From: Candidatus Hermodarchaeota archaeon
GTDB lineage: Archaea; Asgardarchaeota; Hermodarchaeia; Hermodarchaeales; Hermodarchaeaceae
Reading direction: 5' to 3'
DNA: 11,661 nt
Assembly (NCBI GenBank): GCA_016840065.1
Contig: JAEOTB010000071.1
Span: 1-11,661 of the forward strand
Shown in pieces: positions 973 through 11,661 of this stretch; position 1 is the stretch's first letter, and the number at the start of each line of letters is the position of its first letter. A program made the position numbers and the translations under genes. The notes beneath the pieces were generated by a model, which had not been told where the DNA came from, did not search any database, and saw nothing but the letters and a program-made list of their open reading frames with translations.

Positions 973-1199
973 AGAATAAAAAATGAATGCCCATAAAGAA
1001 ACGGCGTTTCCACCAAGAAAGAATATAACGGTCAATTATCGAGCAACATACCCCTTTTTTAAGGAGAAAACCGATATTTCCCTTTAGAATCGTGAATTGC
1101 CGAATTATCTCATTCCCATGATACAAAAGAGATAAAAAGCGAACGCGGGTCTTGCGGAGAAGTCACATGACACTTTCGGCAAAAATGGAGTAGCCTTTG

Positions 1200-2249
1200 A
1201 TGAAACACGTTGGTATTTTAGGCTTCGGCGGATATATTCCCAAGTACCGCATCTCCGTCGAGGAAATTGCCCGGGTCTGGGGCAAAGATGGCAAAGCAAT
1301 CAGTCGAGGATTGAACCTGGAAGAAAAAAGCGTCCCAGGTCTCGACGAGGATACAACTACAATTTCTGTTGAGGCAGCACGCAACGCCATGAAATGTGCT
1401 CAGATTGATTCCCAGCGCATTGGCGCAATCTTTGTTGGTTCCGAGTCACATGTCTATGCAACAAAACCAACTGGAACAGTGGTGGCTGAAGCCATCAATG
1501 CGCCCAATAATATCCAGTGTGCTGATTTCTCCTTCGCCTGTAAGGCAGGAACTGCAGCCATCCAGGTATGTATTGGCTTGGTCAAGTCAAAGGAAATCGA
1601 TGTGGGTTTAGCCATCGGTTCAGACACAGCTCAGTCCAAACCAGGAGACGCACTGGAATACGCAGCAGCCGCTGGTGGTGCAGCCTTCCTCATTGGAACA
1701 GGAAAAGATTGTGTCGCCAAATTCGAAGGTACCTACTCCTATACAAGTGATACGCCGGATTTCTGGCGCAGGGAAGGAACAGATTTCCCAGAACACGGTT
1801 CACGGTTCACCGGAAAACCCGCTTACTTCCGTCATGTTCACCAAGCAGCTCTCGGACTCATGAAGAAGCTCAAAACCAAGCCTGAAGAATACGACTGGGG
1901 AGTCTTTCACTCACCGAACGGCAAGTTCCCAAGACGCGCAGCCAAAGCCCTTGGCATCCCCGAGGAGAAAATCAAGCCCTCCCTTGTTGTAGACAGAATC
2001 GGGAATACCTACGCCGGTAGTTCTCCCCTCGGTTTGGCAGCAACCCTTGATATAGCCAAACCTGGTGACCGCATACTCATGGTATCCTATGGCTCAGGCG
2101 CAGGGAGCGACGCCTTCAGCATCGAGGTTCTCGAACCCTTACTGGAGAAGCGAGAACACATGCCCAAGGTGGAAGACTATATCCAAGACAAAGTCAGCAT
2201 CGACTATGCAACGTATGCGAAACACCGCCGAACAATCAAAGTGGAGTGA
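1200..2249 (+). CDS. Hydroxymethylglutaryl-CoA synthase, archaeal type
   Basis: ~350 aa. [16 protein letters not shown] (catalytic Glu), FACKAGT (catalytic Cys), FHSPNGKFP (His), IGNTYAGS and [18 protein letters not shown] upstream. First gene of the thiolase/DUF35 cluster. Confidence 0.95.
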
Positions 2250-3430
2250 AAAAGAAAATGACTGATCCCAAAGATAGAGTCGCTGTAATAGGTATAGGAC
2301 AAACAAAGTTCGGGGAGCAATGGGATAAGAGTATCCGCCGTATCACCCTCACCGCAGCAGGAGCCTGCCTCGCAGACGCAGGCGTTGGAGGCGTGGATAT
2401 TGACGGGCTCTACGTAAGCAATACATCGACAAGCTCATTCATTCAGCAAGAACACCAAGCTGCCATGGCTGCAGACTCTGGGGGACTACTGCCAATTGCC
2501 TCAACCGAAGTAGAAGCAGCCTGTGCAAGTGGAGGTGTCGCAGTTCGCCACGCTTACATGGCAATAAAATCAGGCGAACACAAAGTAGTAATGGTGATTG
2601 GCTGCGAGAAAATGAGCGACATCTCAGAACGGGCAATCGCCGACACACTCATGAGTGCAGCAGACCGGGAATGGGAAAGCCAAATCGGAGCCACATTCCC
2701 CGCCCTATTCGCTCTTCTCGCCCGCCGCCACATGATGCACTATGGAACCACTGAAGAGCAGTTAGCCGCAGTCCCGGTCAAAGCCCACGCCAACGCTGTA
2801 AATAATCCCAACGCTCAATTTCGGTTTAAAGTAAGCATTGACCAAGTTCTCCGAAGCGCCCTTGTTGCCGACCCCCTGCGCGTATTTCACTGCGCCCCAA
2901 TATCGGATGGAGCAGCCGCACTAATTCTCTGCCGAGGTGACCTTGCTGAAAAATTCAGGGGAGAACCTGTCTGGATAAATGCCTCAACTCAAGCTTCTGA
3001 TACCCTTGCTCTTCATAGTAGACCCCATCTCACAACCTTCCGTGCCGTTAAACACGCAACAAAAATGGCCTATGACAAGGCCAAAGTCGAACCAAAGGAC
3101 ATCGATGTACTGGAACTTCATGACTCCTTTAGCATCAGCGAAATAATGGCCGTAGAAGATGTTGGGATTGTCGAGAAAGGTAAAGGCGGCTTCGCCATCG
3201 AGGAAGGATACACCTCTATGAAAGGAGAAAAGCCTGTCAATCCTAGCGGAGGACTCAAAGCAAAAGGCCATCCTGTTGGTGCAACAGGTATAGCACAAAT
3301 CGGTGAACTAGTTGAACAGCTCCGCCACACTGCTGGTCCCCGCCAAATCGAAGGTGCCAAAACTGCTCTCGCCCTAAACCTTGGCGGTACAGGCTCCACT
3401 GCAGTAGTTCACATACTTAGTAAGGAATGA
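2246..3430 (+). CDS. Acetyl-CoA acetyltransferase (acetoacetyl-CoA thiolase, archaeal type)
   Basis: EAACASGG (nucleophile Cys), [23 protein letters not shown] and C-terminal NLGG typical of archaeal thiolases. GTG start overlaps the HMGCS stop (GTGA); alternative ATG at 2258. Confidence 0.95.
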
Positions 3431-3451
3431 AGCCCAAAGGAGAAAACCAAG

Positions 3452-4030
3452 ATGAGTGATCAAAGCGTTCCAATGCTCTGGCGACGAATAAGACACCGCT
3501 ACAACCTAGTCGGTCGTCATTGTAAAACCTGCGACTCAAAATACTTCCCGCCAATCCCCCTCTGCAGGAAATGTAGAAGAAAAAGCGATCTTGTAGATTT
3601 CCAATTTTCTGGTCTAGGAAAAATCTACTCTTACACGATTATTAGGGATCCCCCCACGGGTTTCAGGGATCTCGCCCCATACGCTATCGCGATGATCCGC
3701 CTCGACGAGGGACCACTAGTTCTTTCCCAAATCGTTGACACGAAATTTGAAGACCTTAGAATAGGGATGAGTGTCCAAGTGGTCTTCCGCCGAATAGGTG
3801 ACGCAGGTCGAACCGGGGTCCTTCACTACTCCTACAAATTCAAGGCATTACCAGAATATGCAACAGGATACGTCATCGGAACAGTTGATGGCGAAGAGGG
3901 TGTCCAGCACATCCAAGTACCGGTTGAGGAGCGAGAGCGAACATCAGTTCGGAGAACCATCCAAGAAGCCAGTGATGCGGTTCGTCGCAGGAAAGCCAAA
4001 GAACCAACAGATGAGAAATCTGAAGGCTAA
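3452..4030 (+). CDS. DUF35-family Zn-ribbon + OB-fold protein (scaffold subunit of the archaeal thiolase/HMG-CoA synthase complex) with charged C-terminal extension
   Basis: CKTC...CRKC zinc ribbon, then GKIYSYTII, PYAIAMIRLDEG, IGMSVQVVFRRI and YSYKF. AAGGAG RBS. Canonical gene context. Confidence 0.92.
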   Translation: MSDQSVPMLWRRIRHRYNLVGRHCKTCDSKYFPPIPLCRKCRRKSDLVDFQFSGLGKIYSYTIIRDPPTGFRDLAPYAIAMIRLDEGPLVLSQIVDTKFEDLRIGMSVQVVFRRIGDAGRTGVLHYSYKFKALPEYATGYVIGTVDGEEGVQHIQVPVEERERTSVRRTIQEASDAVRRRKAKEPTDEKSEG

Positions 4031-4089: not shown

Positions 4090-4162
4090 TATAAATACAA
4101 GAGCCGTAAGAAATGTGGCATCACCTTCACAATACCATCTAATAATGGTATTACTTACCATT
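4090..4162 (+). promoter_or_regulatory. Putative TATA box (TATAAATA 4090-4097) followed by overlapping inverted repeats (operator-like)
   Basis: AATACCAT(4131-4138)-6 nt-ATGGTATT(4145-4152) is a perfect 8-bp IR. AATGGTA(4144-4150)-5 nt-TACCATT(4156-4162) is a perfect 7-bp IR. Both lie upstream of the acylase RBS. Confidence 0.45.
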
Positions 4163-4178
4163 GATCGGAGGTCTCAGG

Positions 4179-6629
4179 TTGTCCGAAGAGAGAAAATCCC
4201 CATGTTCCTGTAAATCGTTCGCGGTACTGATGATTGGTATATTGATTCTGGGTATGTTGATGAGTGTCGTACCTTGGGTGCAGCCCAACGGTGGTCTTTG
4301 GATGGACATTCACTGGGCAAACCACCCTACTACCGCTACTGAAGCGCTTCCAGGGCTTGACGGAGAAATCACGATAGTCCGTGATAACATGGGCGTCCCT
4401 CATATCTTCGCCTCAACCGAACACGACCTGTATCTTGCCTGTGGATACGTCCACGCACAAGATCGCCTGTTTCAAATCGATGTATTCAGACGTCTAGCCC
4501 AGGGTCGACTTTCAGAGATATTTGGTGAGAACTATTTAATCGACGACATCTTCTACCGCAGCATAGGCCTCAACGAGACAGCATATGATTCCTATCAACT
4601 ACTCTCCTCTAATGCCCAAGGTCTGATTCAAGCCTACGCTGAGGGATTCAATCTTTACCTTGAGAGAATAGGGAGTCGCGTACCCTTGGAAATCCGTGTG
4701 CTGGGGTATATGCCAGAGCCTTTCACCCCCACAGATGTGTTGGTTATGGAACGCTTATTCGCTTGGATGGTTTCAGGTTCCCAAGCCTTCCAAGACCTGG
4801 ACATGGCAGTTCTAGTTGACGCCCTAGGTAATGATTCAGTCTGGAATGAACTCTTCCCAGTTCAACGCTACAACGATCTCCCCACCGTTCCCTCACCTGA
4901 TGTAAAAACAGAAGAATCAGCGAAATTCCAATCAAGCCTTCTTGAAGCCGCCAAATCGCTTGCAGCTCAATACCGGGAAATCATAGCCGATGGTCCTCTA
5001 CCCTCTTCTCCGCTGGGCGGCAGCAACGCCTGGGTCCTAAACGGTAGTCTCACGGAATCAGGTTCCCCCATTCTCTGTGGAGATTCCCATCTTAACCTCC
5101 TCATTCCCACTTTCTGGTATGAGGTCCACTTGGTAGGAGCAGGCCACAATATACGTGGCATCACACTACCTGGGTTCCCCTTTATCATGCAGGGTTACAA
5201 CAGCCATCACGCCTGGAGCTTTACAGCAATGAATTCTGATGATGCTGACTTTTACTACTATCTCTGGGACACAAGCGACCGAGATAGTTACTGGTGGCAG
5301 GGAAGCTGGAACTCAATAAATCAAGTTGAAGTTACAATCAACACGATCCAGGGGGGAATACTCACACCATACAACTACTTCTTCAACACCACAGTCCATG
5401 GTCCCCTATTTGACCAAGCGGATGGACGTTTCGCACTGAAATGGAATGGAAATAATGGGTCTCGGGCAGCTGAAGGATACCTCAATATTACCCGGGCATC
5501 AACCTATTCTGCCTTCGAAAACGCCCTAACAGCCCTTGACAATCCTAGCCTTAACTACCTCTATGCTGACACCTCAGATAACATCGCCTACCACGCCACT
5601 GGTCTACACCCCATCAGACCAGCAGGTGGAGGACCAACCCCCATGAACGGATCCGCTGGCACACATGAATGGCAGGGATTCATCCCATTTGTAGAACTAC
5701 CTCAGAGCTATAATCCATCCACTGGTTATCTGGTTAATGCGAATAACCGTCCAGTCAACTCTTCCTATCCCTATTACCTAGGATACACATTTGCTCCCGC
5801 CCACAGGGCTCAAAGAATAACAGAGCTGATCAATGACTCTACAGACCAAACAGTAGCAGACATGAAGTCAGTCCAGCTGGATGCCTACTCTCTCCAAGCT
5901 GCAGCTCTCAAAGACCTCATAGCGAGTGTTGTCCTCAGCGGCGTAACATCGACAAGCCACCCCCTGGTCCATGAGGCAGCCACCGAGCTTCAGAGCTGGG
6001 ATTGCCAAATGGTCACGACCAGTGTAGGTGCAACGATCTGGGCTAACTTTTACCAAATATACCGACAGGCCACTTTTGGAGATGAATACACAGATGCTGG
6101 TCTCCCAGAGGGACCTTTCCCAGACACCTCGGTGTTGGAGAATTTCACCCTAACCAATCACCCAACCTGGTTCAACAACATCAGCCAAGGCGGCACCCAA
6201 ACCCGTGATGACATAATACTGGAAAGTTTCATAGATTCCATCGGTGACCTCGAACGCCTTCTAGGAGCTAACATGGATTACTGGGAATATGGGAACGTAC
6301 ATGCCCTCGTCATCGATCACTCCATGGGCTCAACATTCCCCTATCTGAACGCCCCTGTAACTCCCATTGATGGCGGCGAATACACCGTGAACTACTGCCC
6401 TGGCTTCTATGTCAACACCGGTGCCACATGGCGACAAATCATCGACCTTGGCAACCCCGATCAGTCAGTGGGCGTCATCCCGGGGGGACAGAGCAGCAAC
6501 CCCTACAGTCTTCACTACATGGACCAGCTAGGTCTATGGATTGCAGGTGAATATCACTCCCTCAGCATCCCTGCAACACCAGGAACAGTAAGTAACCCCG
6601 AGTCCACCCTCACCCTTACACCAGCCTAA
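4179..6629 (+). CDS. Exported/membrane-anchored penicillin acylase family Ntn hydrolase (peptidase S45; penicillin/AHL acylase-like)
   Basis: N-terminal hydrophobic helix, then RDNMGVPHI, GYVHAQDRLFQ, GSNAW (nucleophile Ser, codon 5022-5024), DSHL, TVHGP, NANNRP and PGGQS...HYMDQL. Start reassigned to TTG 4179, 6 nt after GGAGGT (4167-4172); the track start is 4161. Confidence 0.93.
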   Translation: MSEERKSPCSCKSFAVLMIGILILGMLMSVVPWVQPNGGLWMDIHWANHPTTATEALPGLDGEITIVRDNMGVPHIFASTEHDLYLACGYVHAQDRLFQIDVFRRLAQGRLSEIFGENYLIDDIFYRSIGLNETAYDSYQLLSSNAQGLIQAYAEGFNLYLERIGSRVPLEIRVLGYMPEPFTPTDVLVMERLFAWMVSGSQAFQDLDMAVLVDALGNDSVWNELFPVQRYNDLPTVPSPDVKTEESAKFQSSLLEAAKSLAAQYREIIADGPLPSSPLGGSNAWVLNGSLTESGSPILCGDSHLNLLIPTFWYEVHLVGAGHNIRGITLPGFPFIMQGYNSHHAWSFTAMNSDDADFYYYLWDTSDRDSYWWQGSWNSINQVEVTINTIQGGILTPYNYFFNTTVHGPLFDQADGRFALKWNGNNGSRAAEGYLNITRASTYSAFENALTALDNPSLNYLYADTSDNIAYHATGLHPIRPAGGGPTPMNGSAGTHEWQGFIPFVELPQSYNPSTGYLVNANNRPVNSSYPYYLGYTFAPAHRAQRITELINDSTDQTVADMKSVQLDAYSLQAAALKDLIASVVLSGVTSTSHPLVHEAATELQSWDCQMVTTSVGATIWANFYQIYRQATFGDEYTDAGLPEGPFPDTSVLENFTLTNHPTWFNNISQGGTQTRDDIILESFIDSIGDLERLLGANMDYWEYGNVHALVIDHSMGSTFPYLNAPVTPIDGGEYTVNYCPGFYVNTGATWRQIIDLGNPDQSVGVIPGGQSSNPYSLHYMDQLGLWIAGEYHSLSIPATPGTVSNPESTLTLTPA

Positions 6630-6643
6630 AACAATTCAAAGAG

Positions 6644-7150
6644 ATGTATCGTGAAATGTCTACGCCTCGAGATAGTCTCCGCAGCTTCATCTACAAGGAA
6701 CATCATCCCGTTGCAGGCTTCCTGATATGTTTTTTCCTAGCGCTCCTCATCCAACTCATCGGCCAGGGTATATTCATAGCCATTGCCGGCGGTATTGCAG
6801 GTTTTCTCCTCAAACGTGATGTCAAAGCCATAATCATTACTTTTGCAGCTGGGACCTCAGTCTGGCTCCTCTTCTTCGGCATCCTATTCTTCCTCTACCC
6901 CCAAGCATCACTCGCCGCTTGGCTACTCCTCAGCCAGGTTTTCCCAGCACCCCAACTCCTCCTATCCCTCCTGGGCGGGCTAATCTGTGGGATTGGGGGA
7001 GAGATGGGAGTCATCGTTAGCGACTACTTCCAACCACCAGCAGAAATCACAATAAGGCCTAGACGAACACGCCCACCTGAACCACCAGCTGAACCTGCCC
7101 GCCGACGAAGGACAAAGCGAAGAAAACGAAAGAGGAAACGAAGCTCCTAA
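6644..7150 (+). CDS. Hypothetical integral membrane protein (about 4 TM helices) with Pro-rich linker and polybasic C-terminal tail
   Basis: Four Gly-rich hydrophobic segments. Tail RPRRTRPPEPPAEPARRRRTKRRKRKRKRSS. Starts 14 nt after the acylase stop; alternative ATG at 6656. Confidence 0.8.
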   Translation: MYREMSTPRDSLRSFIYKEHHPVAGFLICFFLALLIQLIGQGIFIAIAGGIAGFLLKRDVKAIIITFAAGTSVWLLFFGILFFLYPQASLAAWLLLSQVFPAPQLLLSLLGGLICGIGGEMGVIVSDYFQPPAEITIRPRRTRPPEPPAEPARRRRTKRRKRKRKRSS

Positions 7151-7229: not shown

Positions 7230-7826
7230 ATGCCATCAGAAGATTCTCCCCTCACCGATGAATCCTCCCAACTGGATCAACTCCAACAAGCCCTAAGTGG
7301 AAAAGATCATCAAAAGCGGCTCGATGCCATACATGAGCTAGGACAGCTGGGACCAGCTGCCGTTCCTGTACTTCCACAACTTTACACCTCCCTCAAGGAC
7401 TCCAGCCCAGATATTCGCGCAGCTGCCGCCATAGCCGTGGGTTTCATCGGGTCCAAAAAATCTGTACCAGCTCTCCTCCCCCTCCTTGAGGATGAGAAAC
7501 AAGAAGTCAGGTTCCAAGCCATCAGCGCCTTGGCCTTCCTCTGTGACCCCCAGGTCGTCCAGCCCCTTCTTGAGCGCTTCGAAGTTGAGACACCCCTAAT
7601 CAAGGATCAGATCCTTCGTGCTCTCGGGCAATTGGGTGACACCTGTGCCTATCCTCTACTTGAGCGTGCCATAGCAGACGCTGACCCAAAGATACGCCGA
7701 GCCGCAGTGATAGGGTTTGGATTCCTCAAGGACCCACGCGCACGCCCCCTACTCAAACAAGCCACCGAAGACAAGGATAAACTGGTCTGCAGCGAAGCAA
7801 GGGAAGCTCTAAACCTTCTACCCTAG
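7230..7826 (+). CDS. HEAT-repeat protein (PBS lyase HEAT-like)
   Basis: ~31-aa repeats: LKDSSPDIRAAAAIAVGFIG, LEDEKQEVRFQAISALAFL, IADADPKIRRAAVIGFG, TEDKDKLVCSEAREAL. GAGGT RBS upstream. Confidence 0.9.
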   Translation: MPSEDSPLTDESSQLDQLQQALSGKDHQKRLDAIHELGQLGPAAVPVLPQLYTSLKDSSPDIRAAAAIAVGFIGSKKSVPALLPLLEDEKQEVRFQAISALAFLCDPQVVQPLLERFEVETPLIKDQILRALGQLGDTCAYPLLERAIADADPKIRRAAVIGFGFLKDPRARPLLKQATEDKDKLVCSEAREALNLLP

Positions 7827-8081: not shown

Positions 8082-8330
8082 CTAGCTTGCCTCGGCAACA
8101 CCCTCTGCCAACCGTCGACCCTTATCGGTTAACCTGTACCAAACATGGTAGACTCCACGATTCTCCTGGAGAACACCAGTCTGGGTGAGCCGCTTAAGGT
8201 GATAGGCAGCAGTTGAGGTAGGTATGTCGAGTTCCTTCGCGATTTCTCTAAGGAAGGCTTTGTCCTTCATAAGCTTACGCACGATCCTTCTCCGGGTGAC
8301 GTGCTGTAGTGCTTCTGCTTGTGTCAACAT
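8082..8330 (-). CDS. Winged helix-turn-helix transcriptional regulator (ArsR-like)
   Basis: ALQHVTRRRIVRKL...LREIAKELDIPTSTAAYHLKRLTQTGVL...WYRLTDKG is a typical ArsR/MarR-type wHTH. No Cys, so no Cys-type metal site. Confidence 0.85.
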   Translation of the reverse strand: MLTQAEALQHVTRRRIVRKLMKDKAFLREIAKELDIPTSTAAYHLKRLTQTGVLQENRGVYHVWYRLTDKGRRLAEGVAEAS

Positions 8331-8380
8331 CTTTAATCTGAATAATCATTTATTAAAACAAATATATAAGGGTTTCTATT
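8331..8380 (-). promoter_or_regulatory. Archaeal BRE/TATA element in the divergent wHTH / barrel-gene intergenic region, with palindromic candidate operator
   Basis: Minus strand reads GAAACCC-TTATATAT about 32 nt upstream of ATG 8330; the same bases read AAACAAA-TATATAAG on plus. AATAA-TCAT-TTATT (8341-8354) and TTTAAT-N14-ATTAAA (8332-8357) lie between the TATA and the wHTH start. Confidence 0.5.
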
Positions 8381-8443
8381 ACAGCCAAAAGCACCCAGAA
8401 AGAAAACGAAAACCACAAAAACAAGAAACTCCCTCAAAAACAG

Positions 8444-9790
8444 ATGGAAAACAGCAGGGTTGGTCATATGGCGAATAAACTACGGGTTTATCAGTCCAAG
8501 AAGACCCAACTCTACCAAAGGGGGGTAGCTACTCACTCACAAAAGTGGTCGTCGATTTCCCTTCTCCTTCTTTTCTTACTGACTACCTTTACACCAGTAA
8601 TTGACACAGCAGTTTTTCAACAACCCCCCTCGGTCAAGTTTCCCTCCACACGGCATAACGCAGTTCGAGATTTCGTAGCTGCTCTTCAGATGCCAGAAGG
8701 TGCTTTCATCAATAAGCTTACTCATGCTAGAGCGGAACAAAGACTTGGATCCTGTCGTAACGCAGCTCTAACATTGAGGGTTCTTAATGCATTTACTGTG
8801 ATTGATAGTGACGCAATGATTGACTTCGCAATTGATCGACAGCTTGCCGATGGAGGATTTGTAGATAGAATGGATTTCTGGGAGACAGGTTTGAGAGACT
8901 CTGGATATGCAGTACGAACTCTTGGTGCAGTAAACGCCGTAAACCTAATCAATCGTCCAGGTTTAGGGGAATTTCTTATGAGCTGCTATTTGGGAAACGG
9001 TGGATTCAATGGGATTCCAGGCAGTAGTCCCCTCTACGGTTGGATTTTGAGCAACACTGAAGACGCAGTGGCCTGCTTGGTAAGAACGGACCAACTTCAT
9101 CGGGTGGAAACCTCCGACATTGTTGACTTCGTGATGGAAAGGTATTGTACGGATGGAGGTTTCGCCTGGAATCCTGGAGAGGACCACGCTGTTCTCGCAA
9201 CTTATTATGCTCTTTCAATTCTATCAATGCTAGACGAGATGGATGAGATTACATCAGACTTGAGATCAGCAACCCTTGATTACGTAATGATTTACTACAA
9301 CACAGAGACTGGAGGCTTCTTTGAAGACACTCTAGCGAGGTTGATTCGCCCAATCCTGATTTTACAAATGCTTGATGGTTTATCTTTGGTGAATGCAACC
9401 AAGACAACAGAGCTGGTGTTTGCCCACCAGTCTCATAGACATGGTGGTTTCGTAGGAGCCTTTTCCAATGTTGACGATGCTGCATATGAGGAGCTGCATC
9501 GAACGCGTGAGGCTGTGGTTGTTCTAGACGCGCTTGGTACGCTTGGAGCTTTGGACGAGCCCTTTACGGTTGACGAGGCCCCGGTTCACACAGGTGATAA
9601 TACTCCACCAACGCTTTACACACCTCCTCCACCACCGCCTTTTACTTTAACACCTGATATTCTTGGTATGCTAATTCTCGTCACAGCGATTGGCAGCACC
9701 TTTGCAATAGTGATTGGTTATATAGTTCTTGGAAGGAAGACCACTAGAAAGAAGAAAGTGAAGAAAGTTCGCAGGAAACGTAGACGCTAA
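8444..9790 (+). CDS. Cell-surface prenyltransferase-beta/squalene-cyclase repeat (alpha/alpha)6-barrel protein with N-terminal signal helix and C-terminal Pro linker-TM-polybasic anchor
   Basis: Six repeats: FVAALQMPEGAF, FAIDRQLADGGF, FLMSCYLGNGGF, FVMERYCTDGGF, YVMIYYNTETGGF, LVFAHQSHRHGGF. N-terminal ISLLLLFLLTTF. C-terminal TPPPPPPF-ILGMLILVTAIGSTFAIVIGYIVLG-RKTTRKKKVKKVRRKRRR. Start is 8444 or ATG 8468. Confidence 0.85.
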   Translation: MENSRVGHMANKLRVYQSKKTQLYQRGVATHSQKWSSISLLLLFLLTTFTPVIDTAVFQQPPSVKFPSTRHNAVRDFVAALQMPEGAFINKLTHARAEQRLGSCRNAALTLRVLNAFTVIDSDAMIDFAIDRQLADGGFVDRMDFWETGLRDSGYAVRTLGAVNAVNLINRPGLGEFLMSCYLGNGGFNGIPGSSPLYGWILSNTEDAVACLVRTDQLHRVETSDIVDFVMERYCTDGGFAWNPGEDHAVLATYYALSILSMLDEMDEITSDLRSATLDYVMIYYNTETGGFFEDTLARLIRPILILQMLDGLSLVNATKTTELVFAHQSHRHGGFVGAFSNVDDAAYEELHRTREAVVVLDALGTLGALDEPFTVDEAPVHTGDNTPPTLYTPPPPPPFTLTPDILGMLILVTAIGSTFAIVIGYIVLGRKTTRKKKVKKVRRKRRR

Positions 9791-9999
9791 CAGGTTGTAG
9801 GTTTAAATTCACAATTAATTCTGTTTTGTCTGTTGGCACTAATACTCATCTAATTTCACATGACTTTTTTTCTCGGTTCAAGAATGTAGAACATTCGATG
9901 ACAAATGTCCTCTCTTCTAACGGGATATAAGGGCGTGGAATCTACTCTCAAATAAGCCAAGATAGCAAGAGAAACATCCCTGGGCTCAGAACCTAAAGA

Positions 10000-10018
10000 A
10001 AGCATAACTTTAAATGGG
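10000..10018 (+). promoter_or_regulatory. Putative TATA box (TTTAAA at 10008-10013) upstream of the secreted protease gene
   Basis: AAAGAAAGCATAACTTTAAATGGG about 55 nt upstream of ATG 10069, in a 278-nt intergenic gap. Confidence 0.3.
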
Positions 10019-10068
10019 AAAAAAATTAATGATGGCTGGGAATGGTTCACTAGAAACCATTCCATTCA

Positions 10069-11328
10069 ATGGGATTTGGAATGTTAACAAGAAAACAAGT
10101 GCTCCTTAGTGGAGCTCTAATAGCCTTAACAGCGACTATGTTCTTGCTCCCAGCATGCAACATACTATTCTTCAACCAGCAACAACCAGCGCTAATCCTT
10201 CCCACCCGAGCCGCACCACCACCTGGTGACGACGGTCCAGTAAGGGACCCAAGTGACCCATGGGGCGGCGACGGCGACGACGGCACTGGTCCTGGCGACA
10301 CTGATCCTGGCGACGGTCCTGGCGACACTGATCCTGGCGACACTACCCCCGATCCGATATTTTGGAAAGGGCTACTCGTTAATCACCACGGCCAAACACA
10401 ATCTATGATAGATGAGTTAAACCACATTACATCTATATTCAGAGACTCCATAGGTTACGACAACGGTGGAATGCATGACGGAGACACAATATATGCAGAA
10501 GGCTCTCAATTCGATGGCGATGCCTTTCTTACAAATGTCTTAGACGATCTATGTTCCCCTACTAGACCAACATTCGTTCACCTAACAGGTCACGGGATAA
10601 ACGTTGACGGTATCCCCTTCATACGACTAGACAATACTGATTCAACTCTAGAATACGAAGATATTCGCGCAGAACAATTCTACGTAGACGGAGGATCTTT
10701 TGCGGGTGTTGAACTGATCTTCATCAACGTATGCTATGTAATGTCACGGGAGACAATAGATATGAACAATTGGGCTTACGTCTGTTGTGATAAGATGAAC
10801 GGAGGTTCAATAATCGGCTCTACAAGTATGCCTGACGACTACGCTGCCTATTTCATGGCAACACAATTCTGGGAAGAACTACTCGATTTGAAAGGAGTAA
10901 ATAGCATCAACAAGGACAACATCCAAGACAACATCAAAGATGCCTTCTTACATGGTAGTGTAGATGCTCGACACACAGCAGAACATGCGGCAGATGCAGT
11001 GGTCCATCTAGTTACCGCTGGCGTTCACGCGATATCAGGTGCCCTCGAATGTCTCATTGTATACGAACAAACAGCCGCTCTCTATGCTCTTGCCTCTGGT
11101 CAATTATTAGTGTTTGCGGGTTTAGAATCTGCGATTATAGTTGAACTTCTCATTTTCATCTGGTGGCACATCGCATTACCAGGTGGTATACAGCTTCTTT
11201 CAGACCAGCTATGGATGAACGGAGTTATTCATCCTAGTCTGGATGCATATCAGCTACGAAGATCAGCTTACGGTGAACCTATTACGACAGGCGGAGCTGG
11301 GCATCACTTATACGTCTCTCCGGTCTAA
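10069..11328 (+). CDS. Secreted protein with clan CD (caspase-hemoglobinase fold; CHAT/legumain/gingipain-like) cysteine peptidase domain, Pro/Gly/Asp linker and hydrophobic C-terminal region
   Basis: Signal peptide (LTRKQVLLSGALIALTATMFLLPAC). TFVHLTGHG (His175, 10591-10593) and ELIFINVCY (Cys222, 10732-10734) each follow a hydrophobic beta strand, 47 residues apart. Downstream SIIGSTSMPDDYAAYFMATQFWEELL resembles the CHAT 'VIG....V.D..A..F...FY..L' segment. The CDS is solid; the product is a motif-level call. Confidence 0.72.
   Translation: MGFGMLTRKQVLLSGALIALTATMFLLPACNILFFNQQQPALILPTRAAPPPGDDGPVRDPSDPWGGDGDDGTGPGDTDPGDGPGDTDPGDTTPDPIFWKGLLVNHHGQTQSMIDELNHITSIFRDSIGYDNGGMHDGDTIYAEGSQFDGDAFLTNVLDDLCSPTRPTFVHLTGHGINVDGIPFIRLDNTDSTLEYEDIRAEQFYVDGGSFAGVELIFINVCYVMSRETIDMNNWAYVCCDKMNGGSIIGSTSMPDDYAAYFMATQFWEELLDLKGVNSINKDNIQDNIKDAFLHGSVDARHTAEHAADAVVHLVTAGVHAISGALECLIVYEQTAALYALASGQLLVFAGLESAIIVELLIFIWWHIALPGGIQLLSDQLWMNGVIHPSLDAYQLRRSAYGEPITTGGAGHHLYVSPV
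10288..10341 (+). repeat. Perfect 27-nt tandem duplication (GGTCCTGGCGACACTGATCCTGGCGAC x2) encoding GPGDTDPGD x2
   Basis: Copies at 10288-10314 and 10315-10341. The core CCTGGCGAC occurs four times, within a GC-rich patch encoding the P/G/D/T linker. Confidence 0.95.
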
Positions 11329-11339
11329 GGTGTAGTTCT

Positions 11340-11661
11340 ATGTTCAGTGTCAAAGGAGGTAGACAAACGAAAAAATCGTATACATTCTACCTCCTTTTTC
11401 TATTTTTTTCATCATTCTATTTATTTCCAGGGATTATAGACTCGCAAACGGAGACAATTACGTTACACGCTATTCGCTGTTCAAAAGCTTATGATACCAC
11501 AAGACATCAAGCAATAGTCGACTTCATCTCTGAACTCCAGATGGTGGATGGAGGCTTCATTGACAATCTAATGGAACCCCGCTCTGCTGCCATTCTGAAA
11601 GTATCCAAGTGGGCAACACTTGTCATGTCAGTACTTGACGAACTCTCTGCCATTGATGAAG
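11340..11661 (+). CDS. Second prenyltransferase-beta-repeat surface protein, paralog of 8444..9790; 5' part only (not in ORF track)
   Basis: ATG 11340, 11 nt after the protease stop, with AGGTG RBS-like motif; open to the window end: MFSVKGGRQTKKSYTFYLLFLFFSSFYLFPGIIDSQTETITLHAIRCSKAYDTTRHQAIVDFISELQMVDGGFIDNLMEPRSAAILKVSKWATLVMSVLDELSAIDE. Ungapped manual alignment to the 8444 protein gives 21/55 identities. Confidence 0.88.
   Translation, partial: MFSVKGGRQTKKSYTFYLLFLFFSSFYLFPGIIDSQTETITLHAIRCSKAYDTTRHQAIVDFISELQMVDGGFIDNLMEPRSAAILKVSKWATLVMSVLDELSAIDE

Follow-up and report, generated by a model that had tools for sequence, protein, structure and literature searches.

A conserved gene pair of Asgard archaea encodes a CHAT-type protease, predicted to be membrane-anchored, and a prenyltransferase-like toroid protein

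We analyzed contig JAEOTB010000071.1 from the genome assembly of a Candidatus Hermodarchaeota archaeon (GCA_016840065.1, denoted G000 below; 2.59 Mb, 84% complete). The window is this entire contig, 11,661 nucleotides (nt) in length, which we denote C54. At its right end, we identified a two-gene cassette in which a gene for a CHAT-type cysteine protease of clan CD, predicted to be anchored in the membrane, is followed by a gene for a protein with the alpha/alpha toroid fold of prenyltransferase beta subunits (hereafter, the toroid). An earlier note, prepared from the sequence without database searches, had described this region (8082-11661) as a winged helix-turn-helix (wHTH) regulator gene on the minus strand followed by genes for barrel A, a secreted His-Cys protease and barrel B on the plus strand. 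The listing of open reading frames (ORFs) and Pfam matches recovered all four genes at the same places and in the same order, wHTH (-), toroid A (+), the 419-amino-acid (aa) protein (+) and toroid B (+). The conserved unit among these is the pair formed by the protease and toroid B:

10069..11328 (+): gene 1 of the cassette, predicted membrane-anchored CHAT-type clan CD cysteine protease, 419 aa, identified by the family profile, an AlphaFold2 model and fold matches
11329..11339 (+): 11-nt spacer, reading taaGGTGtagttctATG, with a GGTG Shine-Dalgarno-like element before the ATG of toroid B
11340..11661 (+): gene 2 of the cassette, 5' part of toroid B; the rest is on contig C7 (128-1092), for 428 aa in all

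Conserved adjacency and co-divergence of the two genes

Positions 11535-11661 of the window are identical to G000:C7:1-127, an exact 127-nt overlap, and extending the contig rightward through this overlap, as the earlier note had suggested, yields the complete toroid B, which is built like toroid A. The assembly broke between C54 and C7 because toroid B has a copy with 82% identity on a third contig (G000:C49:6418-7767, -). The same genome harbors a second protease-toroid pair, on contig C18, with a gap of 61 nt between the two genes compared to 11 nt in the C54/C7 pair.

A protease profile built from two sequences detected no homolog in 40 relatives; an 18-sequence profile produced matches in 33 of the 400 genomes of the phylum, a patchy, accessory distribution. 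We then examined the context, up to 7 kilobases (kb) of flank, of 20 small family members (about 220-450 aa) in 17 other genomes, all from the same phylum and representing at least four GTDB families. A toroid ORF is located immediately 3' of the protease ORF, on the same strand, in 19 of these loci, and the 20th locus ends at a contig end. The gap between the two genes ranges from -8 to +49 nt in 18 of these 19 loci (three of them with overlapping genes); in the remaining one, the gap is 422 nt and the toroid is split. Adjacency of protease and toroid is far beyond chance, and the conserved linkage in other genomes, on which the earlier note had made its proposal depend, is borne out for the protease and the toroid downstream of it.

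Furthermore, the tree of the proteases agrees with that of the toroids (Mantel r 0.905; none of 2000 permutations reached that value). Shared species history inflates such congruence, but the sorting of paralogs is independent of it: in the genomes with two or three cassettes (G386, G332 and G316), each copy belongs to the same clade in both trees. The paralogs sort alike, indicating that the cassettes duplicate and diverge as units. Taken together, adjacency and co-phylogeny support functional coupling of the protease to the adjoining toroid gene.

Toroids and proteases are present in a 1:1 ratio in four other genomes, so that the three solo toroids of this genome (toroid A and those on C49 and C25) are a lineage-specific extra. 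None of 19 other loci contains a toroid upstream of the protease and, accordingly, the arrangement that gave the earlier note its system, with a barrel on either side of the protease, is confined to this contig. The wHTH gene, also included in that system, adjoins no other cassette, and no third gene family recurs near the cassette in three or more loci; thus, the regulator is not a conserved partner.

Two family members, the paralog on C18 and the protein of locus L072, lack the histidine of the His-Gly motif described below (L072 has no His at either of the two motif positions), yet both retain the toroid partner. Although there are only two such cases, they hint at a structural partnership rather than merely that of an enzyme with its substrate. 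Among the genomes searched, the cassette was found solely in the phylum of the window. A locus search with a five-sequence profile yielded a single Dehalococcoidia locus among genome contigs and none in JGI metagenomes; the Dehalococcoidia protein combines a soluble coiled coil with CHAT and has no toroid within 8 kb, which makes it a generic cousin.

The protease belongs to the CHAT branch of clan CD

On its own, the 419-aa protein matches no Pfam or NCBIfam entry, and a word-index homolog search retrieved the query only, low-complexity Gly/Pro words seeming to crowd out real candidates. With the family profile, the same type of search returned three proteins in its near mode and none in its longer mode, and a protein atlas gave weak leads only (scores of at most 0.88), to bacterial CHAT/C25-like clusters. 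In an exhaustive HMMER search of 1.84 billion representatives, a two-sequence core profile detected 20 distant relatives. The CHAT entry PF12770 is matched by most of these, in several cases with a score above the gathering cut-off, and Peptidase_C25 is an additional match of some. A profile of 36 family members aligned with the CHAT domain of PDB entry 8TL0 with an E-value of 2.6e-8, and both the H-x-x-x-H-G and the A-C motifs were included in the alignment.

The AlphaFold2 model computed from 36 aligned sequences has a mean predicted local distance difference test score (pLDDT) of 77.8 and a predicted template modeling score of 0.72, with pLDDT above 90 for residues 150-310; a model from only two aligned sequences (pLDDT 33) was not used. 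The top Foldseek matches of the model are SAVED-CHAT, Csx29, C11 proteases, MALT1, caspases, metacaspase, legumain and gingipain. In VIA-align comparisons, the model superimposed best on SAVED-CHAT (8TL0; Z 18.3, root-mean-square deviation 2.5 A over 185 aa). Z values of 10-15 were obtained for gingipain, separase, metacaspase, legumain and caspases; among the single comparisons, Z is 15.2 for RgpB, 15.1 for DdvA (8ROT), about 14 for separases, 12.8 for OaAEP1 and 11.3 for PIG-K. The caspase-like fold that had been proposed for this protein is therefore upheld by the profile match, the Foldseek hits and the structural superposition alike. The proposed His-Cys dyad is present as well, His175 and Cys222 being aligned with the motifs of 8TL0. 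In the family alignment, Cys222 and Gly176 are invariant (36 of 36 members), whereas His175 is found in 29 and His171 in 28 of the 36. As judged from the profile and the model, the product of gene 1 is a CHAT-type clan CD cysteine protease with a His175/Cys222 dyad and predicted peptidase activity. Its parts are as follows:

10090..10182 (+): putative N-terminal transmembrane (TM) helix or signal anchor, residues 8-38, from hydropathy; helical in the model, found throughout the family, with a conserved Pro near its end
10207..10359 (+): conserved Arg/Pro/Asp motif, then a Pro/Asp/Gly linker of low complexity, residues ~47-97; low pLDDT at 55-83
10345..10908 (+): caspase-hemoglobinase catalytic core, residues ~93-280; high pLDDT, VIA-align matches
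10591..10593 (+): codon of His175, predicted catalytic His of the H-G motif (HLTGHG), aligned with HG of 8TL0
10732..10734 (+): codon of Cys222, predicted catalytic Cys (NVCY; family consensus LSACY), aligned with LNAC of 8TL0
10921..11244 (+): long helical hairpin, residues 285-392 (modeled helices 285-342 and 348-392), hydrophobic at 312-332 and 340-378
11245..11325 (+): terminal beta-strand (residues 394-397) that rejoins the core, then a disordered Gly-containing tail; pLDDT 93 for 391-400, low past 409

The hairpin, which is probably embedded in the membrane, leaves the catalytic domain and returns to it, and the hydrophobic C-terminal region is therefore built into the architecture of the protein rather than forming a detachable module. 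The C18 paralog is only 29% identical overall, with PTF[VL]HL.G.G and C-Y as common motifs; despite this divergence, the motif RAAPPPxDDGPVxDPSDPW (window 10207-10260) is almost identical in the two proteins, and this region could be a pro-peptide or an autoprocessing site. Much of the family has a conserved Arg after the TM helix. At the other end, the sequence of many members closes with a run of Gly and a short Pro/hydrophobic terminus (for example, PVIM, PVVM, PTPM, ITPY or LPF) that recalls the "aaX" of CaaX boxes, without the Cys. Such a tail might dock into the cavity of the partner toroid. A candidate lipobox at LLPAC of the protease was ruled out, as its Cys is not shared across the family.

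The toroid, a predicted surface protein, has lost the zinc site

All 22 toroids in our alignment match PF00432 (E-value 2e-19 for toroid A), and the part of toroid B encoded on C7 matches toroid A with an E-value of 7e-58. Toroids A and B are 36% identical and share the same build, consistent with their earlier description as diverged paralogs. This common build consists of an N-terminal basic-then-hydrophobic segment, the toroid itself, a Pro/Thr stalk, a TM helix and a polybasic tail of 12-20 residues; in toroid A, the signal or anchor is at residues 35-59, the TM helix at 404-431 and the tail at 432-448. By hydropathy, an N-terminal basic-hydrophobic segment is present in all three plus-strand products, toroid A, the protease and toroid B. 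The signal peptides that the earlier note had assigned to them stand to that extent, the segment being either a cleaved signal peptide or a signal anchor.

The combination of a TM helix with a polybasic C-terminus occurs in 4 of 2189 ORFs of the genome, all of them toroids; polybasic endings as such were found in 9 of 2529 ORFs, of which four are toroids. By the positive-inside rule, the toroid would face outward. In the C49 copy, the C-terminus diverges past the TM helix and the polybasic tail is gone, so this gene may be a decaying duplicate or a recombinant. A toroid-like polybasic tail, RRRRTKRRKRKRKRSS, was also observed in an orphan 168-aa multi-TM protein encoded in the window (6644-7150, +), which is without a Pfam match and has no homologous gene elsewhere in this genome or beside the cassettes of others.

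When compared with the PDB, the toroid family profile (alignment A6) matched eukaryotic RabGGTase-beta (E-value 4e-40) far better than either FTase-beta (~1e-15) or squalene-hopene cyclase (~1e-6). The zinc ligands of rat RabGGTase-beta (1DCE_B) are D238, C240 and H290, which fall in the aligned motifs PDVCYSWW and DPFHT. At the corresponding positions, toroid A contains Ala249, Leu251 and Leu305. Across the 22 toroids, these columns vary, the equivalent of C240 is never Cys, and that of H290 is mostly Trp; furthermore, there is no conserved Cys or His column anywhere in the alignment. Given the loss of the ligand columns and of any conserved Cys or His, the toroid is not a zinc-dependent prenyltransferase. 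Judging by its sequence, it is a non-catalytic binding module, a description that leaves room for the binding of isoprenoids or peptides. We also considered a thioester (TED-like) toroid, which was ruled out because no Cys column is conserved among the 22 proteins.

A more distant surface toroid is encoded on contig C65 of the same genome (locus L008:859-3621, -; 438 aa, PF00432 E-value 1e-17). Directly 5' of it, with a 0-nt gap, is a 481-aa ORF of unassigned family, which is unrelated to the CHAT family by hhalign (E-value 0.09). These two genes may be another pair of a toroid with a partner.

A gated surface protease and the alternatives

We favor, with moderate confidence, a model in which the two products form a cognate membrane-tethered pair, that is, a CHAT protease at the cell surface and a non-catalytic toroid that gates it. 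In this view, the two genes would make up a complete and conserved module of the Asgard cell surface. The catalytic domain would face outward and be held near the membrane by the N-terminal TM helix and the hydrophobic hairpin. Gene 2, which is translationally coupled to gene 1, would yield a type-I membrane protein, with the toroid ectodomain carried on the Thr/Pro stalk, followed by the TM helix and the long polybasic cytoplasmic tail. The toroid might play the role that the TPR repeats have in TPR-CHAT proteases (separase, Craspase, DdvA), binding a ligand or substrate and gating the protease, and the target of cleavage would probably be either a captured surface or exogenous protein or the toroid's own juxtamembrane stalk.

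Several points weigh against this model, in addition to the inflation of tree congruence by shared history discussed above. The hairpin is just moderately hydrophobic in some family members; the outward topology follows from hydropathy and the positive-inside rule only; and we infer both the formation of a protease-toroid complex and the substrate. A fused protease-toroid protein was not found either, in a search that the tool itself rates as weak evidence.

A more specific version, which we consider unlikely as it stands, is a ligand-gated ectodomain-shedding receptor of Asgard archaea. In this case, the dead toroid would sense an external ligand, either a peptide C-terminus or an isoprenoid, the CHAT protease would act as a site-1 protease that cuts the juxtamembrane stalk of the toroid, and the stub consisting of the TM helix and the polybasic tail would be released or relocalized to signal inside the cell. 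If true, the closest archaeal relatives of eukaryotes would signal through regulated proteolysis, as DdvA and eukaryotic receptors do.

The stalk is also central to the first of the alternatives, namely, that the protease is a dedicated processing or sorting enzyme, similar to PorU, PIG-K or a sortase/archaeosortase, which cuts the stalk-TM-polybasic anchor and either releases the toroid or re-attaches it to lipid or the envelope, so that the toroid would be cargo and not a regulator. The tripartite signal of stalk, TM helix and basic cluster is unique to toroids in this genome, the strict 1:1 pairing suits an enzyme with one substrate, and the fold of the protease also matches gingipain (Z 15.2), the ligase OaAEP1 (12.8) and PIG-K (11.3). 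However, no short invariant motif precedes the TM helix across the toroid clades, and polybasic tails of 12-20 residues far exceed known sorting signals. Moreover, members without the catalytic His keep the toroid, the three solo toroids of this genome bear the same anchor but have no protease of their own, and the closest fold is that of CHAT, not C25 or C13. We regard this explanation, too, as improbable.

Quite unlikely, in our assessment, is a nutritional exoprotease with which a peptide-fermenting archaeon would degrade proteins from its environment, the toroid being an accessory that captures substrates or anchors the enzyme to the envelope. Such a function would fit the predicted outward orientation of the catalytic domain, the patchy, accessory distribution of the module and an ORF 3' of toroid B on C7 that, judged by eye, resembles an Opp/Dpp-type permease. 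Peptide transporters are not conserved beside the cassette, however, and tight 1:1 co-evolution with a dedicated partner would be unusual for bulk degradation. In addition, CHAT and clan CD enzymes typically are specific processing proteases.

The two models put forward in the earlier note fare worse. In the first of these, a polymorphic toxin/immunity system, autoprocessing of the protease would free its hydrophobic C-terminal part as a toxin, with toroid B as the cognate immunity protein and toroid A as an orphan copy of the latter. A tightly coupled downstream gene and extra solo paralogs of that gene in this genome are what such a system would be expected to show, but the C-terminus is alike in all 36 members, with the hairpin and the strand that rejoins the core (pLDDT 93), and is not a swappable toxin. 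The partners are surface proteins of 430-470 aa rather than small cytoplasmic immunity proteins and, given the 1:1 ratio elsewhere, form no immunity arrays. No secretion or delivery genes are conserved nearby, and PADLOC has no match for the protease or the toroid (its wHTH matches reflect the generic wHTH domain only), all of which makes this model highly improbable. The second, an extracellular cleave-and-lipidate machine in which a protease or transamidase cuts surface proteins and the toroid catalyzes or delivers isoprenoid attachment, draws on the isoprenoid-based membranes of archaea, on prenyltransferase beta subunits being the closest solved relatives of the toroid (RabGGTase-beta, E-value 4e-40) and on PIG-K-type transamidases of the same fold, but is barely credible because the Asp/Cys/His zinc ligands essential for prenyl transfer are missing in 22 of 22 toroids, with no Cys or His column conserved, and because neither an alpha-subunit-like nor a lipid-biosynthesis partner is conserved nearby, the upstream mevalonate genes not being conserved neighbors.

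Other features of the contig

The rest of the four-gene region, upstream of the cassette, comprises the following:

8082..8330 (-): wHTH regulator, ArsR-type, 82 aa (Pfam HTH_5/HTH_20, E-value ~3e-8), divergent from toroid A; a mere neighbor
8444..9790 (+): toroid A, 448 aa, a solo paralog outside the conserved pair
9791..10068 (+): intergenic region, 278 nt, with a TATA-like TTTAAAT at 10010-10016, ~55 nt 5' of the protease ATG, a candidate promoter element of the protease gene

Further upstream on the plus strand, genes for 3-hydroxy-3-methylglutaryl coenzyme A synthase, thiolase and a DUF35/OB-fold (ChsH2-like) protein follow each other in a row (1197-4030), the arrangement of the archaeal mevalonate-pathway entry complex. 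A functional link between these genes and the cassette was considered and ruled out because they are not conserved neighbors of other cassettes. Also upstream of the cassette are genes for an 822-aa N-terminal-nucleophile hydrolase of the penicillin amidase family (4161-6629, +; PF01804, E-value 2e-194) and for a 198-aa HEAT/PBS-lyase repeat protein (7230-7826, +), neither of which recurs near other cassettes. Elsewhere in the genome, a homolog of VPS28, a subunit of ESCRT-I (endosomal sorting complex required for transport I), scores above the Pfam cut-off (G000:C69:46334-46867, +), whereas none of 14 control genomes has one, which supports the Asgard assignment of this genome. A search for the profilin family matched neither this genome nor any of the control genomes and thus carries no information about absence.

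Novelty and comparison with known systems

The earlier note knew of no described system with this pairing, and our search of the full-text literature agrees: it yielded no account of an archaeal prenyltransferase-like protein that has a CHAT or caspase-like protease as its partner. Both folds are known; it is their combination, a CHAT protease that is anchored in the membrane, apparently faces outward and co-evolves 1:1 with a prenyltransferase-beta-like surface pseudoenzyme, for which we found no published description. To our knowledge, almost nothing has been learned experimentally about the Asgard cell surface, and the module provides a defined two-protein target for the study of proteolysis or signaling there. 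The presence in Asgard archaea of close sequence relatives of eukaryotic RabGGTase-beta, a likeness seen in the profile match, in a role that appears to be non-catalytic and extracellular, bears on the origin of the eukaryotic prenylation machinery.

With the beta subunits of RabGGTase, FTase and GGTase-I, the Asgard toroids have in common the PF00432 alpha/alpha toroid, but they lack the zinc ligands, and the signal or anchor, stalk, TM helix and polybasic tail would direct them to the surface rather than the cytosol. Their partner is a protease rather than an alpha subunit; no alpha-like gene recurs near the cassettes, although the genome was not searched specifically for alpha subunits. PorU, the sortase of type IX secretion, and PIG-K/Gpi8 have the same clan CD fold as the protease. 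Both are associated with membranes, operate outside the cytoplasm and have C-terminal anchoring signals as their sites of action. Substrates of sortase- and transamidase-type systems have in common a C-terminal signature of motif, TM helix and basic cluster, which the enzyme recognizes; in the toroid anchors, we observed a stalk, a TM helix and a polybasic tail and found no conserved cleavage motif. The other subunits of the PorU and PIG-K machineries are absent, and the protease is closer to CHAT than to C25 or C13 in both sequence and fold.

The CHAT proteases (PF12770), including SAVED-CHAT of CBASS and type III CRISPR (8TL0) and the TPR-CHAT protein Csx29 of Craspase, share with the Asgard protease the caspase-hemoglobinase fold and alignable motifs. 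The SAVED-CHAT and Csx29 type of enzyme is cytoplasmic, fused to SAVED or TPR domains, and belongs to defense systems. The Asgard protein, by comparison, is small and combines an N-terminal TM helix with an inserted hydrophobic hairpin and a Gly-rich tail. Its probable orientation is outward, its companion toroid is encoded by a separate gene, and it has no defense context. In the TPR-CHAT proteases (separase, Craspase and DdvA), the helical repeats are fused N-terminally, whereas the Asgard helical module is encoded by a separate gene and is a toroid rather than TPR.

DdvA of Myxococcus xanthus is a transmembrane anti-sigma factor, in which a periplasmic module of helical repeats and CHAT has been proposed to cut a flexible juxtamembrane linker (PMC11506125). 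As in our model of the Asgard protease, the CHAT domain belongs to a membrane protein, lies on the extracytoplasmic side and functions together with helical repeats, and the Asgard proteases would be the second example, after this bacterial protein, of CHAT proteases outside the cytoplasm. DdvA, however, is a single polypeptide in which TPR-CHAT is joined to a cytoplasmic anti-sigma domain bound to a sigma factor of the extracytoplasmic function group. The Asgard pair is archaeal, lacks a sigma factor and has, as its helical module, a prenyltransferase-like toroid with a gene of its own. Thus, the cassette is most simply described as a CHAT protease and its helical-repeat partner that are encoded by two separate genes, anchored in the membrane and, most likely, extracytoplasmic.

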